Shown: piece after piece, positions 4,232-40,537 of the stretch | Layout: every line of letters starts with the position of its first letter | Numbering within the stretch: position 1 is the first letter of the stretch | Assembly: GCA_023150535.1 (NCBI GenBank) | Contig: JAKLKS010000003.1 | Location: 1 to 44,510 of the forward strand | Length of the DNA: 44,510 nucleotides | Direction of reading: 5' to 3' | Source of the DNA: Planctomycetota bacterium | GTDB lineage: Bacteria > Planctomycetota > JAJSAM01 > JAKLKS01 | Made by a program: the position numbers and the translations under genes | The notes under the pieces: model-generated | Told to the model about the DNA's origin: nothing | Seen by the model: the letters and a program-made list of their open reading frames with translations, nothing else | Database searches by the model: none

Positions 4232-6244
4232 CTACTCCTCCCCGAGACGCACCGTCCGCTCCGCGGGCTTCCCCACGACGAGGAGGACGCGCAGTTCGCG
4301 GCCGCCGCCGGGTTCGTCGCGGCGGGCGACGAGGAGGCGGTGGGGGCCCGGCGCGAGGCCCTCGAGGAGGAGCGTCCCCTCCGGTGCGGGGTGGATCGCC
4401 CCGTCGAGGAGGACGAGGGCGTCGGCGGGCTTCCCCTCCCCGTCCAGGATCCGGAGCGCGAGCACGCAGGTGCCCGGGGGCGCCGCCGGCTCCTCCTCCG
4501 CATCGTCGTCCTCCTCCGGCAGGGTCCGCCCCTCGCCGGGCCGCACCTCGACCGTCCCCCCCTCGAGCGGCGGCAGGTCGACCTCGAGTTCCCGCGTCGT
4601 CCCCGTGCCGTCGTCGTAGCGCAGCGTCACCCGCCCCTCGGCCCAGGTCTCGAGCGCCCCCCCGGCGGCGCGGAAGGCGACCTCGCGCTCCCCGTCGAGG
4701 AGTTCCGCCTCCCGCGCCCCCTTGGGGAGGATCACCCTCCGCGGCTCGGGGATCGCCACCTTCGCCTCGCGGACGCCGTCCCTCACGGGGCCGACGAGGA
4801 AGAAGAAGGGGGGCGCGCCCTCCACTTCCACCCGGAGCTTGGCGGTCGCATCGCCGGGGAGCCAGGGGGACCAGGGCTCCTCGGGGGTCTGCTCCCCATC
4901 CAACTCGTAGCCGGGCAGGGCGAGGACCAGATCGGCCCCCTCGGGGACTTCCCCCGTCACGCGGAGCCGCGGACGGGGCCGCACCTCGAGGAGGAGGTCC
5001 GCCGGGGCGCCGGTGGCCGCCTGTCCCATGACGTGGTCGAACTCGAACTTCCCGAAGGGATTGTCGGGACGGACGACGAAGGGGCCCGCGGGGATCTCCT
5101 CCAGCGCCTCTCCCGGGAGGGGATCGTTCGCGCCCCCCGGGTCCGCGGAGGCCGTGGTGCCTGCTGGCCCGCGGAAGGTCCGTAGGGACATGACCCGGTA
5201 GGCCACGCCGCCCGCGGGGGCGTCATCCGCGGTGCGTGCCCGGATGCGGACCGTCGCGGTCTCCTCCTCCTCGACCACCCCGAGGGAGGTGACGACCACG
5301 GTCATGGGGACGCCGGGCACGGCGTCGTCGACATGCCAGTCGCCCTCGTCCTCGGTCAGGTCCCCCTCGGGGAAGAAGACAATGGAGTCGCCCTCCACCC
5401 CCTCGAGGACGAACCGCCCGTCGGGGCCGGTCATCGTCGCCGGGCCTCTCTGTTCGTTCCAGGCGCGCACGACGCACCCGGCCTGCGGCCGCCCGAGGGG
5501 ATCGAGGACGCGGCCCTCGAAGCGCAGGCCCGGTTCCCCGACGAGGACGGCCGGGCGGGAGCCGAGCGATTCGGGGCCGTCGGCGGCGACGAGGTCCGAA
5601 GCGATGCCCGGGCCCTCGATCCAGTACTGGCCCAGCCGGCACCGGTGATCCCCCAGGGTGAAGGTCCCGTCCGCCCCCGTCGTCGCGCGGAGCGCGGCGG
5701 TGCCGTGGCTGCAGCCGCCGAGGTACTCCACCGACCCGCCGGCGACGGGGCGCCCGAGAGGATCGAGGAGCACCCCGCGGAAGGGGCGGCCCCGCTCGAG
5801 GAGGACCTCCGTCTCCGGCACCGGGCCGTACTCGTGGGCCGGCGCGTAGCCCTCGGCGAGGACGAGCCAGTGGCAGTCGTCCTTCCAGAGCCAGGGGAGG
5901 GATTCCATCCGCGCGATCCCCTCGGCGTCGGTCACCGCGACCTGCATCACCGCGTCGGCGCGGAGATCGCCCCCGGGGCCCATCTCCGGCGTCCGCACCC
6001 AGCGCGCCCCCGGGACCGGCCGCCCCGTGGCGGCGTCGAGGACGCGGAGGCCGAACCACTCCGAGCCGGAATCCCCCTCCTCCTCGTCGCCGAAGCCCTG
6101 GTCCGGATCGGGCAGGAACCCCTCCCAGGGGCGGTCGTACTCCCCCTCCGCGCCGGGGGGCGGGGCGGCCTCCTCCGCGGGGGGGGGGCCCGGGGCGGCG
6201 AGGAGGCCGAGGACGAGCAGGGCGGGGATCCGCAGGATCACCAC
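4232..6244 (-). CDS. secreted protein with repeated carboxypeptidase-regulatory-like (CarboxypepD_reg) beta-sandwich modules
   Basis: About 670 aa from GTG 6244 (alternative GTG 6241). Signal-like 'VILRIPALLVLGLLAAPG'. Repeats such as 'GRVLDPLGRPQAGCVV…TGPDGRFVL' and 'GVLLDPLGRPVAGGSV…TGADGTFTL'. The start overlaps the stop of the upstream cytochrome c gene. Confidence 0.7.
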   Translation of the reverse strand: MVILRIPALLVLGLLAAPGPPPAEEAAPPPGAEGEYDRPWEGFLPDPDQGFGDEEEGDSGSEWFGLRVLDAATGRPVPGARWVRTPEMGPGGDLRADAVMQVAVTDAEGIARMESLPWLWKDDCHWLVLAEGYAPAHEYGPVPETEVLLERGRPFRGVLLDPLGRPVAGGSVEYLGGCSHGTAALRATTGADGTFTLGDHRCRLGQYWIEGPGIASDLVAADGPESLGSRPAVLVGEPGLRFEGRVLDPLGRPQAGCVVRAWNEQRGPATMTGPDGRFVLEGVEGDSIVFFPEGDLTEDEGDWHVDDAVPGVPMTVVVTSLGVVEEEETATVRIRARTADDAPAGGVAYRVMSLRTFRGPAGTTASADPGGANDPLPGEALEEIPAGPFVVRPDNPFGKFEFDHVMGQAATGAPADLLLEVRPRPRLRVTGEVPEGADLVLALPGYELDGEQTPEEPWSPWLPGDATAKLRVEVEGAPPFFFLVGPVRDGVREAKVAIPEPRRVILPKGAREAELLDGEREVAFRAAGGALETWAEGRVTLRYDDGTGTTRELEVDLPPLEGGTVEVRPGEGRTLPEEDDDAEEEPAAPPGTCVLALRILDGEGKPADALVLLDGAIHPAPEGTLLLEGLAPGPHRLLVARRDEPGGGRELRVLLVVGKPAERTVRLGEE

Positions 6245-34145: not shown

Positions 34146-34610
34146 CTACAGCCCCTCGCGCCGCTCGTCCTCGCGGAAGACGGCGACGATCTCCTCGGGG
34201 CTCCTCGCCTCCGCGAGGGCGCGCTTGGCCTTCTCCTGGTTCAGCACGCGCGCCACCTGGGCGAGGGCCCGGATGTGGGGGCCGGATTCGTCGGGGTGGG
34301 AGACGAGGAGGAAGAGGATGCGGCAGGGCTCCCCGTCCACGGCCTCGAAGGCGAGGCCGCCGGGGCAGGTGGCGAGGGAGGCCATGAGGCGGGGGACCGC
34401 CTCGGTCTTGCCGTGGGGGACGGCGACGCCGCGGCCGATCCCGGTGGAGAGCACGGATTCCCGCTCGAGGACGGCGCGCACGACCTCGGCGGCGCCGTTC
34501 CCCCCGGGGAGGGGCAGGAGCGAGACGAGTTCCTCGATGGCCTCGCGCTTGGAGGAGGCGCGGAGGCCGATGCGGATCTGGCTGGCGGGGAGGAGTTCGG
34601 AGAGGCGCAC
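34146..34610 (-). CDS. ptsN: PTS EIIA-Ntr-type protein
   Basis: 154 aa. 'STGIGRGVAVPHGK' phospho-His motif. GTG start with GAGGG upstream. Confidence 0.85.
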   Translation of the reverse strand: MRLSELLPASQIRIGLRASSKREAIEELVSLLPLPGGNGAAEVVRAVLERESVLSTGIGRGVAVPHGKTEAVPRLMASLATCPGGLAFEAVDGEPCRILFLLVSHPDESGPHIRALAQVARVLNQEKAKRALAEARSPEEIVAVFREDERREGL

Positions 34611-34804
34611 GCGTCACCCTCGGGGCGGGACGGGGCCGGAGGATTCGTCCCGGAGGGGGAATGGTAGCCCCCGGGGAAGGGGGCGGCGGACGAATCGGGA
34701 GGGGGGTGTCACGGGCGGGAGGGGGCGGCCGGCGCCCCGTGAGGGCTTTCCGCCGGCACGGTCCGTGGAGCGGAAGGTGGGCGGGGAGCGGAAGTGTGGA
34801 GTGG

Positions 34805-35860
34805 GGGCAAGGGCACCGTGGCTGAGCTCGGTGGTCCCCTTCAGGGTCTTCGGTGCAGCGGGTTGCGCACCGCCGTCGCCGGCGACGCGCCTCCCCTCCT
34901 GGTCTTGCCCTGCCTCTCGGAGCTTCCGCGTCCTGCACCTAGCCGCGTTCTGGTTCGCGGCACCCTCCACGCCGTTCCTCCGGCCTCGAGGTCTTCGATG
35001 CACGACACCGTCCGGGACCGCGGTCCCGGCTGCTCCCGCAGGCTTGGGCGTCCCTCCAGGGTATGACCCTGGCTGCCCGTGCCGCGACGGCCTTCGCCGT
35101 GCGGCGACCCTCCTGGGGTTCCGTCCCCCTACAGCGGTCACGACCTGCCGGAGTCCGCTCTTCCCGGAGTTCCCGACCTCCGGCACGGTCCGCCCTCGGC
35201 GTTTCGCACGCCCTCGACGGTTTGCTCCTCCAACAGGCTCCCGGCCCTTTTCAGGCCGGTGCCGCTCCTGGGGTTCTCCCTACAGAGCCTTGCTCCTCCT
35301 CGGGAAGCCGTGCGCCTTTCGGCGCCGATACCCTCCTGCCGTTCACAGAAACCGCGGTCCTCCACTCTGAGGTTTTTCTGGAAGATCACGGTTCTCCGCA
35401 GCTTCAGGGTCTTGCTCCTCCCGACGAGTCCGTACCCCGCGGGGCTGCCGCCCCGCAGCCGGGCCGATGCTCTCTTGGGATTGGGCCTCTCCAGGGCTCT
35501 CGCCGGAATGCCATGGCCAGCGCTTCCGCCGGCCTTCCCGCCCGCACTTCGGCTTCGCCGCGCCTCGCTAAAGACGGGACGTCGCCTGTGCCTCCGGGCT
35601 TCTCTGCACGATCCGGTCAGGGGATCCGTCTCCGGACCCCCGGCCCTCCTGAGGTTTTCCACCTGATCTCGCCCTAGGTGCCCCCTTAAGGCACCCAGGC
35701 GTTTCCGGCAGGCACTGGGCCCGCCGGCGCGAGGGGGGTTTCCCCCCTGGGCGGCGGGACCCGAAGGCCCCACCCACCCGACTCGCTGCCTGGTTGTCAA
35801 AGAGGCACTTCGGACAGGCGAGACCCCGGTGACGAGTCCCAGAAGCGCCCTTGCCCACCG
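34805..35860 (-). ncRNA. candidate large (~1.05 kb) structured non-coding RNA or giant structured ptsN leader; family not recognised
   Basis: No credible ORF. Purine-rich on the minus strand. Promoter TTGACG-16-TAGACT lies just upstream. A 13-bp helix joins 35856-35844 to 34817-34805. More than 10 perfect local hairpins, including UUCG/GAAA/GAGA loops. Internal 10-12-nt exact repeats. Confidence 0.4.
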
Positions 35861-35866
35861 GGGGAG

Positions 35867-35894
35867 AGTCTACAACGCGGGGAGACTTCGTCAA
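35867..35894 (-). promoter_or_regulatory. near-consensus sigma70 promoter facing the ORF-free region
   Basis: Minus strand TTGACG (35894-35889), 16-nt spacer, TAGACT (35872-35867). A 60% A+T block at 35911-35950 sits in the UP-element position. Confidence 0.45.
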
Positions 35895-36093
35895 GGCGGA
35901 TTCCGTCCACAATCTGTTTCCTATCAAGGAGTTATGACGGATCTAACCTGTGGATGAGCGGGTGGAGAACTCCCCATCCCCCTGCTCCTCAAGGGGATGC
36001 GAAGTTGTGGAGAGAGTGGATAACCGGCCGCACCCGGCCGATGAAAGGGGGACGAAGCGAGGCGGACGGATGCGGAATCCCCGTGGAAGGATC

Positions 36094-36118
36094 GGATCTC
36101 CACAGGCTGTGGAAATCC
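36094..36118. promoter_or_regulatory. 25-bp near-palindrome, candidate dimeric regulator site
   Basis: ggatctccaca-ggc-tgtggaaatcc, 11-nt arms with one mismatch. Part of a cluster of eight GTGGA/TCCAC cores (35906-36113). Confidence 0.4.
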
Positions 36119-36295
36119 AGGGGCCCCGGTCCGAAGGCCCTTGAATCCTGCGCTGGAAGCACTATTCTTAGGGGGTCTTACCGGATCCGACCCCAGATAT
36201 GGCGGCTAGGACCCGTCCGAAAAGGCGGATGCTCTGAGGGCCGCCCTGCCGCCGGGGTCGGGGACGGAATCGGGACGCCCCGATGGAGGCGAACC

Positions 36296-37297
36296 TTGGG
36301 CGCTCCCTTCCTTCCCTTCCTCCGGACGCAGGGCGGCCGGCGCCTCCTTCCCGCGCTCCTCGCCCTCCTCCCGCTCCTCGCCGCCTGCGCCTCCACGGAC
36401 CCCGACGCGGGCAGGACCTGGCAGCCCGCGGACGAGTCCTCCTGGGCGACGACGGCGCGGGCCCTGGCGGCGGACCTGGGGGCCACCCTCGTCGCGGAAC
36501 CCGGCACGAGGACCCTCGTCATCGAGGGGAGGGGCGGCCGCATCCTCTTCCTCGACGGCACCCGCATGGTGACCGTGGACGGCCAGCGCCTCGAGGCCTC
36601 GACCACGCTGCAGTTCGGGGACGGGGACGTGGCCCTGGCCAACGAGGACGCGGTGCGGATCTCCCAGGCGTGGAAGGAGGCCGTCTCCCGCAGGGAGGCC
36701 AGGGAGCGCGCCCTCGCCGCCGCCGCCGCCCCGCCGCCTCCCTCCCGCGCCCCCCCGCGGGGCGACGCCGTGGGGGACCCCGAGTGGAACGTCCCCCTGA
36801 AGCGGGACTGGGAGGGGATCCTCATCCACCACTCCGCGACGGAGGGCGGGAACCTCGCCAAGTTCGACAAGTTCCACCGCGAGGTGAACGGGTGGCTCAT
36901 GGTCGGGTACGACTTCATCATCTGCAACGGGGACGGGGGGCCCGACGGCCTCGTCCAGACGTCGGAGCGGTGGACCACCCAGATCCAGGGGGCCCACGCG
37001 GGCAAGGGCCTCAAGAGGTACAACGACCACTGGGTCGGCATCTGCCTCGTCGGCGACTTCAGCCGCGAGCGCCCCACGGCGAAGCAGATGGCCTCTCTCC
37101 GCCGCCTGGTCCGCTACCTCCAGGACCGCTGCGGGATCCCCGACGCCAACGTGCGCACCCACCGGGACGTCCGGGACACGGACTGCCCCGGGAAGCACTT
37201 CCCCCTGGGGGAGGTGCTCCGCGCCGGGGCGGGCCCGCGCGGGGCGGAGGCCCTGCGATCGGGGGCGGGCCTGCGCGCCTCGCCCCGGGGGAAGTAG
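36296..37297 (+). CDS. lipoprotein N-acetylmuramoyl-L-alanine amidase (Amidase_2/PGRP domain)
   Basis: 333 aa from TTG 36296, with GGAGG 6 nt upstream. Lipobox 'LLPLLAAC'. 'ILIHHSAT…GYDFII…HAG…NDHWVGICLVGDF…H.D…CPG'. Confidence 0.8.
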   Translation: MGAPFLPFLRTQGGRRLLPALLALLPLLAACASTDPDAGRTWQPADESSWATTARALAADLGATLVAEPGTRTLVIEGRGGRILFLDGTRMVTVDGQRLEASTTLQFGDGDVALANEDAVRISQAWKEAVSRREARERALAAAAAPPPPSRAPPRGDAVGDPEWNVPLKRDWEGILIHHSATEGGNLAKFDKFHREVNGWLMVGYDFIICNGDGGPDGLVQTSERWTTQIQGAHAGKGLKRYNDHWVGICLVGDFSRERPTAKQMASLRRLVRYLQDRCGIPDANVRTHRDVRDTDCPGKHFPLGEVLRAGAGPRGAEALRSGAGLRASPRGK

Positions 37298-38546: not shown

Positions 38547-40358
<1,812 letters not shown>

Positions 40359-40537
40359 GGGAATCGCCCATGTCTACACGGTCCGGCTCCGGCCCCGGCG
40401 GAAAAGGCGGGGGGCCGGGCGGAAGGGGCGGGCCCGGGGCCGCGGCGCGGGGTGGTAGACTCGGGGAGTCCGGCCGTCCAAGGGGGGGAGCCCCGCGCGG
40501 AGGGGCGGACGGGGGAGGGTGCGTCCTGCGGGATCCG

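Follow-up and report, generated by a model that had tools for sequence, protein, structure and literature searches.

What do short exact repeats signify in a stretch of bacterial DNA that contains no open reading frames (ORFs)? The DNA considered here, which we refer to as ‘the window’, is 44,510 nucleotides (nt) long and represents positions 1 to 44,510 of contig JAKLKS010000003.1 (assembly GCA_023150535.1). It belongs to a Planctomycetota metagenome-assembled genome from activated sludge that is 88% complete and has a GC content of 74%. An earlier note, made from the letters of the window alone, reported three repeats in an ORF-free region, and these occur as described: TTGCTCCTCC three times on the plus strand, starting at 35222, 35290 and 35412; CTTCAGGGTCTT twice, starting at 34839 and 35402; and CTCCTGGGGTTC twice, starting at 35110 and 35265. 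The note also took the region to be a minus-strand RNA assembled in modular fashion from recurring short motifs, and this has held up: the RNA contains ten copies of one kind of internal loop and three similar junctions marked by the motif GAGCAA. In what follows we argue that the repeats very probably correspond to strands, used again and again, of structural modules of two kinds, all within a single large structured RNA. What the observations below establish is the transcript, with its strand and secondary structure, and where the modules lie and how well they are conserved.

The ORF-free stretch is an independent minus-strand gene for a structured non-coding RNA of ~1,055 nt. It occupies positions 34803 to 35860 (ends accurate to within ~10 nt either way), and is recognized by a lack of coding periodicity, by covariation and by RNA contigs. 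Third-position GC periodicity, which is 0.96–1.00 in the flanking genes, is absent from 34611–36282. The gene is preceded by the sole sigma70-like site in 34500–36400 (0.0 expected in shuffles), TTGACG-16-TAGACT. The −35 hexamer, TTGACG, lies at 35889–35894 on the minus strand, and its TTGAC is conserved in homologs of the family; the −10 hexamer, TAGACT, lies at 35867–35872, after a 16-nt spacer. Aligned in the minus-strand sense, the homologs form a sharply bounded conserved block that begins a few bases downstream of the −10 hexamer and extends from ~35860 to ~34800. The two ends of this block are complementary, and make up a terminal closing duplex, ‘P1’, whose 5′ strand lies at 35832–35859 and 3′ strand at 34803–34831 (inverted repeat I17). 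P1 is a 25–30 base-pair (bp) end-to-end duplex in 17/17 genome-derived homologs, with free energies of −38 to −52 kcal/mol. Its core, GGGCAAGGGC/GCCCTTGCCC, is complementary at 10 of 10 positions in the window, and is swapped in other families for GGTTGAGCG/CGCTCAACC, GGTCGGACGCG/CGCGTTCGACC and similar pairs; that is, the changes are compensated. In our interpretation, transcription from the sigma70-like promoter (35894–35867) runs along the minus strand from ~35860 to ~34803, separately from the downstream gene, ptsN, and the ends of the RNA pair as P1 and close a central junction bearing five domains, I–V.

Sequencing runs indicate that the RNA is made, and made in quantity. DNA runs from activated sludge contain 100% of sampled words of 34700–36000, and six RNA runs, from four studies, contain 74–77%. 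Contigs of four RNA runs, one per study, cover 34803/4–35850 and leave the flanks without cover; in two of the studies the cover is a single contig, of 1048 nt in one and 1047 nt in the other, and these two share their ends. In one run the k-mer depth of the RNA is 3,400–30,000. Of 65 newly recovered loci with a near-full-length copy, 48 are on contigs of a metagenome collection that are shorter than 1,400 nt, and most of these 48 have both ends within ~30 nt of the predicted RNA ends. From this geometry we infer that they are transcript-sized metatranscriptome contigs. The coincidence of RNA-contig ends across studies, with DNA runs extending beyond, is by itself a weak hint; taken together with the 48 short contigs, we regard a discrete, abundant RNA as well supported.

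Could the RNA nevertheless belong to ptsN, as a cis-regulator or an extended, structured 5′ leader, with the repeats simply its parts? The ptsN-like gene (PTS_EIIA_2; 34146–34610, minus strand; Pfam E = 2.5e-29) is the conserved downstream neighbour, and lies on the RNA's strand throughout the class and neighbouring lineages. The window, moreover, has no separate ptsN promoter, and the C-rich, G-poor spacer between the RNA 3′ end and ptsN (34611–34802, minus strand) has no T-run terminator. Against this, the spacer has no RNA-run cover, the RNA contigs end at 34803/4, ptsN itself is without cover in four RNA runs, and distant homologs have unrelated genes downstream (kynureninase-like, MgtC and IS66). 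Intrinsic terminators separate the RNA from ptsN in the order's other two families, where a GC hairpin and T-run directly follow P1, and for this reason we regard the RNA as an independent gene rather than a leader, a role that seems very unlikely. The different 3′ tracts suggest that the families have switched between modes of 3′-end formation. The C-rich tract of the window (34802–34611) may, we infer, act as a Rho-type terminator.

How widely does the RNA occur? It is single-copy within the window's own genome, and is more strongly conserved than the adjoining gene. We examined 17 genomes of the class, of which eight are at least 90% complete; the order, which is the whole of the class, carries the RNA in 16 of its 17 species. 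Identity of the RNA stretch is 79–87% over 1.1–1.5 kb within the family, and 66–71% in the core in the order's other two families. Two sequence collections were searched with a degenerate pattern drawn from the RNA's most conserved segment. In the species-representative genome collection 19 stretches match, and the record titles of 14 of these name Planctomycetota or Planctomycetaceae, the rest naming other taxa or none. In the metagenome collection there are at least 120 matches, and 65 of the new loci contain a near-full-length copy of the RNA. The main alignment, made with MAFFT, comprises 64 non-redundant full-length homologs that are 49–93% identical to the window. Domain IV was also aligned separately (‘A2’), and a search of 151 sampled Planctomycetota genomes with a covariance model of this domain (‘R1’) brings up the RNA in 19, which represent ~10 families; three of the sampled genomes (G069, G117 and G128) contain two copies of the RNA core. 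One database entry, NZ_JALGRD010000036.1 (1,154 nt), filed under Stutzerimonas marianensis, is made up wholly of the RNA, divided between two abutting pieces whose model positions overlap. Most likely, it represents contamination or a chimeric assembly rather than a gammaproteobacterial copy.

The 64 homologs define an elaborate fold. RNAalifold predicts 279 consensus pairs in 57 helices, and compensatory pair types are present at 193 of the 279. Cells of the alignment at consensus pairs are canonical in 87.8% of cases, vs 40–47% when the 3′ partners are slid by one to three columns. G.U cells (1762) outnumber A.C cells (466), which is what a minus-strand RNA, as supposed in the earlier note, would lead one to expect. 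For domain IV, in the A2 alignment and R1 model, the figures are as follows: 96.8% of its cells are paired, vs 33–51% when slid, 25 of its 41 pairs have changed on both sides, and the observed values are reached by none of 500 shuffles. In the consensus structure, P1 closes a central junction that bears domain I and four tandem domains, II–V, joined by short, A-rich linkers (GAAAA, CCCAA, GAA and GACGGAA). Domain I (35660–35831) is the most variable, and parts of it were not resolved by RNAalifold on the 64-sequence MAFFT alignment. The domains that follow are each bounded by a strand we call ‘X’ and a strand we call ‘Y’, paired as follows, all on the minus strand: domain II (35486–35654), X 35654–35643 with Y 35497–35486; domain III (35277–35480), X-like 35480–35469 with Y 35288–35277; domain IV (35126–35273), the most conserved, X 35273–35261 with Y 35138–35126; and domain V (34836–35118), X 35118–35108 with Y 34846–34836. 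Domain III additionally holds two GAGCAA three-way junctions and an inner Y:X module. The RNA has many GNRA-type tetraloops. Two further segments are at least 95% conserved: the hairpin tip CCUCAGAG (35372–35365, minus strand), and UCyUUGA.A (35803–35795, minus strand), which is partly helical in the consensus. Since CUCU could pair with AGAG, domains I and III may make a long-range contact.

The first kind of module is the one that closes domains II–V, each of which begins with a helix, continues through a symmetric 3×3 purine internal loop, and resumes as a helix. The X strand has the form RAA-CC(C)C-ANG-AG..., and the Y strand the form ...CU-GNA-GGGG. The two 12-nt repeats are one X strand and one Y strand of this recurring module. 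CTCCTGGGGTTC reads GAACCCCAGGAG in the RNA sense, and by alignment and structure its copies are the linker and X strand that open domain IV (35265–35276, where the linker is GAA) and domain V (35110–35121). CTTCAGGGTCTT reads AAGACCCUGAAG in the RNA sense; one copy provides the Y strand for domain III's inner module (35402–35413), pairing with X 35341–35330, and the other, again by alignment and structure, is the Y strand that closes domain V (34839–34850). All four copies are on the minus strand.

Counting the inner ones, and a GNG/GNG variant, there are ten copies of the loop, of the type 5′-RNG/5′-GNR. The X:Y sequence form is shared by six of the ten, among them the four closures of domains II–V. 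The 80 pairs that flank the ten loops are 94.9% canonical, and 44 of them are compensatory vs 14–20 when slid. Within the loops the central position is free, and the outer positions are opposed purines, A.A or G.G, that exchange together; mixed A.G outer pairs are nearly absent. Numbering the loops along the RNA, with all positions on the minus strand and counts referring to the 64 homologs, loop 1 is AGG 35648–35650/GGA 35490–35492 (A.A 55/64, G.G 56/64), and loop 2 is GAG 35592–35594/GGG 35541–35543 (G.G 56/64; the other outer pair A.A in 30 and G.G in 25). In domain III, loop 3 is AAG 35474–35476/GUA 35281–35283 (A.A 46, G.G 50) and loop 4 is GAA 35403–35405/AGG 35335–35337 (G.G 51, A.A 46). 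Loop 5 is AGG 35267–35269/GUA 35130–35132 (A.A 61, G.G 63), and loop 6 is GAG 35213–35215/GAG 35195–35197, in which the pair 35215/35195 is A.A in 33, G.G in 31 and mixed in none, and the other outer pair is G.G in 63. Domain V contains the rest: loop 7, AGG 35112–35114/GAA 34840–34842 (A.A 60, G.G 59); loop 8, GGA 35055–35057/AGG 34898–34900 (G.G 64/64; 35055/34900 A.A 46, G.G 17); loop 9, GCG 35037–35039/GAG 34916–34918 (35039/34916 A.A 32, G.G 30, mixed 1; the other outer pair G.G 64); and loop 10, GAG 34985–34987/GUG 34968–34970 (G.G 57, A.A 7 at one outer pair; G.G 54, A.A 8 at the other). The exchange of A.A for G.G argues for defined homopurine pairs. These may be of the trans Watson–Crick/Hoogsteen kind, which we presume from isostericity tables.

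Familiar purine motifs fit these loops poorly. Judged by inspection against their consensus sequences, kink-turns, sarcin-ricin loops, UAA/GAN motifs and 11-nt receptors all have a register or consensus unsuited to the covarying flanks. The kink-turn register (a 3-nt bulge, then G.A/A.G) cannot be accommodated between the flanks here, and the sarcin-ricin consensus AGUA/GAA is absent from the 3×3 loops. As a reused, non-canonical purine internal loop with conserved Watson–Crick flanks, the 3×3 loop resembles loop E, kink-turns and the G.G/G.A bubble of stem IIB of the HIV-1 Rev response element. It differs from all of these in being symmetric, 3×3, its two outer positions each occupied by A.A or G.G and its centre free to vary.

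A probable relative of the RNA was seen in one RNA run, X15. A 1019-nt contig in this run, with a k-mer depth of 840, matches the window only at 35025–35045 and 35256–35278 (21–23 nt), the latter segment being the X strand of domain IV. Its depth is ~18-fold above that of the window's own RNA in the same run, and it is probably a homologous RNA from another sludge organism.

The second kind of module accounts for the 10-nt repeat. In the RNA sense this is GGAGGAGCAA, and it marks three look-alike three-way junctions. At each, GGAG(G) completes a helix strand on its 3′ side and (G)AGCAA(R) is a long single-stranded segment, the other two junction strands being 1–2 nt. At copy a (35222–35231, minus strand), the GGAG helix end pairs with 35153–35149 and GAGCAA(A) is the long junction strand; here GGAGNAA (35228–35222) is invariant in 64/64 homologs (G35228, G35227, A35226, G35225, A35223 and A35222). 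At copy b (35290–35299, minus strand), GAG pairs with 35428–35426 and GAGCAAG is the long junction strand. The exact 10-mer of copy b is specific to the window's family and results from a 2-nt insertion; two of its bases are missing in 47–51 of the 64 homologs. At copy c (35412–35421, minus strand), GGAGG pairs with 35307–35300 and AGCAAG is the long junction strand; this copy is mostly conserved, with the AGCAA consensus kept in 42–55 of the 64 homologs, depending on the position.

Might the repeats have arisen by chance in a sequence rich in purines and in GC, or be what is left, without selection, of an internal tandem duplication? In 2000 dinucleotide shuffles of the RNA, the one observed 10-mer with at least three copies is matched in 52, and the two observed duplicated 12-mers in 138, so for a single sequence coincidence is not far-fetched. 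The motifs occupy the same alignment columns in 64 diverged homologs, and this argues against it. It is conservation across homologs, not single-sequence statistics, that settles that the repeats matter. A long internal duplication as their source was considered and rejected. Only domains III vs IV score above the 95th percentile (9/200 shuffles), and 4 of the 10 domain pairings score at or above the shuffle median; because the pairings score near shuffles and give no sign of a long duplication, the repeats are motif-level recurrences and not duplication remnants. Both chance and neutral duplication are, in our estimation, highly improbable.

The earlier note had observed that the RNA displays many GGA and GGAGG motifs, and had asked that their density be compared with shuffled sequence. 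They do exceed expectation: GGA occurs 47 times (shuffle mean 37.9; reached in 40/2000), GGAGG 14 times (6.9; 12/2000), CAGGAG five times (0.83; 4/2000) and GGAGCAA three times (0.18; 3/2000). The excess is modest for a single sequence. On the strength of such motifs, the note drew an analogy with CsrB/RsmZ-type sponges, which sequester the protein CsrA by means of GGA in hairpin loops. The likeness is that CsrB, RsmB and RsmZ (Rfam clan CL00106) are likewise non-coding RNAs with a recurring, short, GGA-containing purine motif, and the modest enrichment of GGA speaks for it, as does a chance-level match to the Rsm-family RNA RsmW (17.7 bits). That match, the best to any Rsm family, falls far below the gathering score of 52 (E = 4). 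Nor does there appear to be any CsrA to sequester: a search for PF02599, its Pfam family, gave nothing in any of the class's 17 genomes, the window's own included, 16 of which carry the RNA; among 14 named control genomes, the same search detected CsrA in three (E. coli, B. subtilis and T. maritima). The GGA motifs are also misplaced, lying wholly within hairpin loops at only two of 47 sites; unlike those of CsrB, RsmB and RsmZ, they occur in long-range helices and internal loops. CsrB, RsmB and RsmZ are, besides, three to ten times shorter than the RNA described here. To a CsrA sponge we attach next to no credence.

The 10-nt repeat had also been likened to a Shine–Dalgarno motif, which raises the possibility that GGAGG mimics that sequence and titrates 30S subunits or the 3′ end of 16S rRNA. 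GGAGG is twice as frequent as expected, the RNA is abundant, and ribosome-related genes, bipA and ptsN, lie nearby. None of these motifs is exposed, however: 0/14 GGAGG, 0/9 AGGAG and 0/24 GGAG sites are fully unpaired in the covariation-supported structure, and most GGAGG-type sites are helix strands with compensatory changes. Ribosome titration is accordingly an extremely unlikely role. The purine motifs are strands of helices, 3×3 loops and junctions, rather than exposed Shine–Dalgarno-like or GGA loops.

What, then, might the modules of such a structured RNA be for? We suggest that each 3×3 loop would form three stacked non-canonical pairs that fix the geometry of the helix, and that the loops together would present repeated docking surfaces, either for RNA tertiary contacts or for one protein bound in many copies. 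This would make the RNA an abundant scaffold, forming a ribonucleoprotein (RNP) or an RNA-only assembly, as in other ornate, large bacterial RNAs. The main rival on the question of function is that some RNA-binding protein recognizes the 3×3 loops or the GAGCAA junctions, and that the RNA, as a decoy or scaffold with many sites, titrates or organizes copies of this protein. Ten loops that are almost alike, their outer purines strictly conserved and their centres free, might be expected of such an RNA, as might its very high depth in RNA runs; and several of the loops have a two-fold symmetry (CGAGG/CGAGG) that would befit a dimeric protein. No protein emerged as a candidate, though; the genes that neighbour the RNA vary between lineages, and DUF5679, the one small zinc-ribbon gene conserved near the RNA, fails to accompany it outside the class. 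In large RNAs, furthermore, motifs that recur often serve RNA–RNA packing. We consider a protein decoy possible, and rather unlikely.

Several points count against our interpretation of the repeats as strands of modules in one structured RNA. In the single sequence the exact repeats are no more than marginally significant (p ~0.01–0.07). The homologs are not independent of one another, and significance based on shuffles is inflated as a result. Outer P1 was missed by RNAalifold on the MAFFT alignment, and rests on duplex folding and inspection. Contigs cannot define the exact ends of a transcript, the strand transcribed or its level. The 3×3 loops are predicted, from covariation of the flanking helices and from the A.A/G.G exchange. 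Finally, the analysis identified no partner protein or ligand.

Does the RNA belong to a family already described? No family in Rfam 15 matches the window or 16 homologous loci at the gathering score. Among matches to the window with E values up to 10 no relevant family appears, and OLE, GOLLD, ROOL, raiA and HEARO are all absent. Full-text literature searches found no description of the RNA. It is not a divergent RNase P or 6S RNA, both of which are present elsewhere in the genome (RNase P on contig C455, 6S on contig C243). With OLE, GOLLD, ROOL and raiA it shares a long non-coding transcript, an elaborate, covariation-supported fold, great abundance and a lineage-restricted distribution, together with a function that cannot be read from the sequence. 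It differs from these in matching no Rfam model and in occurring in Planctomycetota. GOLLD, at ~800 nt, is shorter than the RNA here, and to our knowledge none of the four has ten symmetric 3×3 homopurine loops or four identically closed tandem domains. More than 500 nt long, non-coding, with a complex, covarying fold and a discrete, abundant transcript, the RNA appears to represent a class of large, ornate bacterial RNA not described before. GOLLD, ROOL and OLE form homo-oligomeric, RNA-only complexes (PMC12286853). By analogy, these homo-oligomers are a possible precedent for the role of recurrent modules.

Only a few bacterial RNAs have been described that are large, fold intricately and lack an assigned function. 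Each has revealed unexpected biochemistry, such as RNA-only cages and membrane RNPs. The present RNA stands out for the unusual strength of the comparative evidence, for transcript-sized contigs from independent studies, and for its occurrence in a poorly studied phylum. The repeats that first drew attention to it expose a principle of construction, a helix–3×3 loop–helix module used ten times, with exchange of A.A for G.G. Structural studies thereby gain a concrete, testable motif, and further members can be sought with R1 and with the consensus sequences of X and Y. In its most ambitious form, the interpretation would be that the RNA represents a previously unrecognized class, giant and ornate and, rRNA aside, the longest of its kind in bacteria, present in several Planctomycetota lineages and abundant in metatranscriptomes of sludge, soil and sediment; that the ten 3×3 loops are a new motif that drives homo-oligomeric assembly or multi-copy protein binding; and that its repeated occurrence beside bipA and ptsN hints at a connection with stress or with the control of translation. 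We put this forward tentatively, giving it somewhat less than an even chance.

The genes around the RNA follow a consistent order in the class and nearby lineages: bipA, rubrerythrin, DUF5679, an amidase on the opposite strand, the RNA, ptsN and a helix–turn–helix gene. Neither of the closest candidates for a constant partner survives wider comparison. ptsN as a universal neighbour holds only for the class and nearby lineages, and the DUF5679 zinc ribbon is not an obligate partner, as noted. Distant carriers have bipA directly upstream of the RNA and a kynureninase-like gene downstream; in others, MgtC, PhoH or IS66 genes are close by. In the window, bipA/typA (38547–40373, minus strand) lies upstream of the RNA on the same strand, three genes away, and in four distant carriers (L039, L099, L154 and L166) it directly adjoins the RNA. 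This proximity could be inherited synteny or a functional link. At locus L022, from one Planctomycetota genome, 477-residue ORFs flank the RNA on both sides, on the RNA's strand (179–1612 and 4763–6196); the second, the only one of the two that was checked, is an IS66-family transposase by Pfam.

The region upstream of the RNA promoter has features of its own. GTGGA/TCCAC cores occur within 35906–36118, between the promoter and the amidase gene, and homologs from the other families have CCACA...TGTGGAG pairs upstream of the RNA promoter. Elements of the GTGGA/TCCAC type may serve as an operator for the RNA. At 36199–36267 on the plus strand, immediately before the amidase-like ORF, is a near-threshold match to the Rfam int-alpA RNA motif (33.9 bits vs a gathering score of 35.8; E = 9.7e-05). 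An islet of ~65 nt at this match is separately conserved, at 79–89% identity, in further genomes of the order and in one genome from another family (G030).

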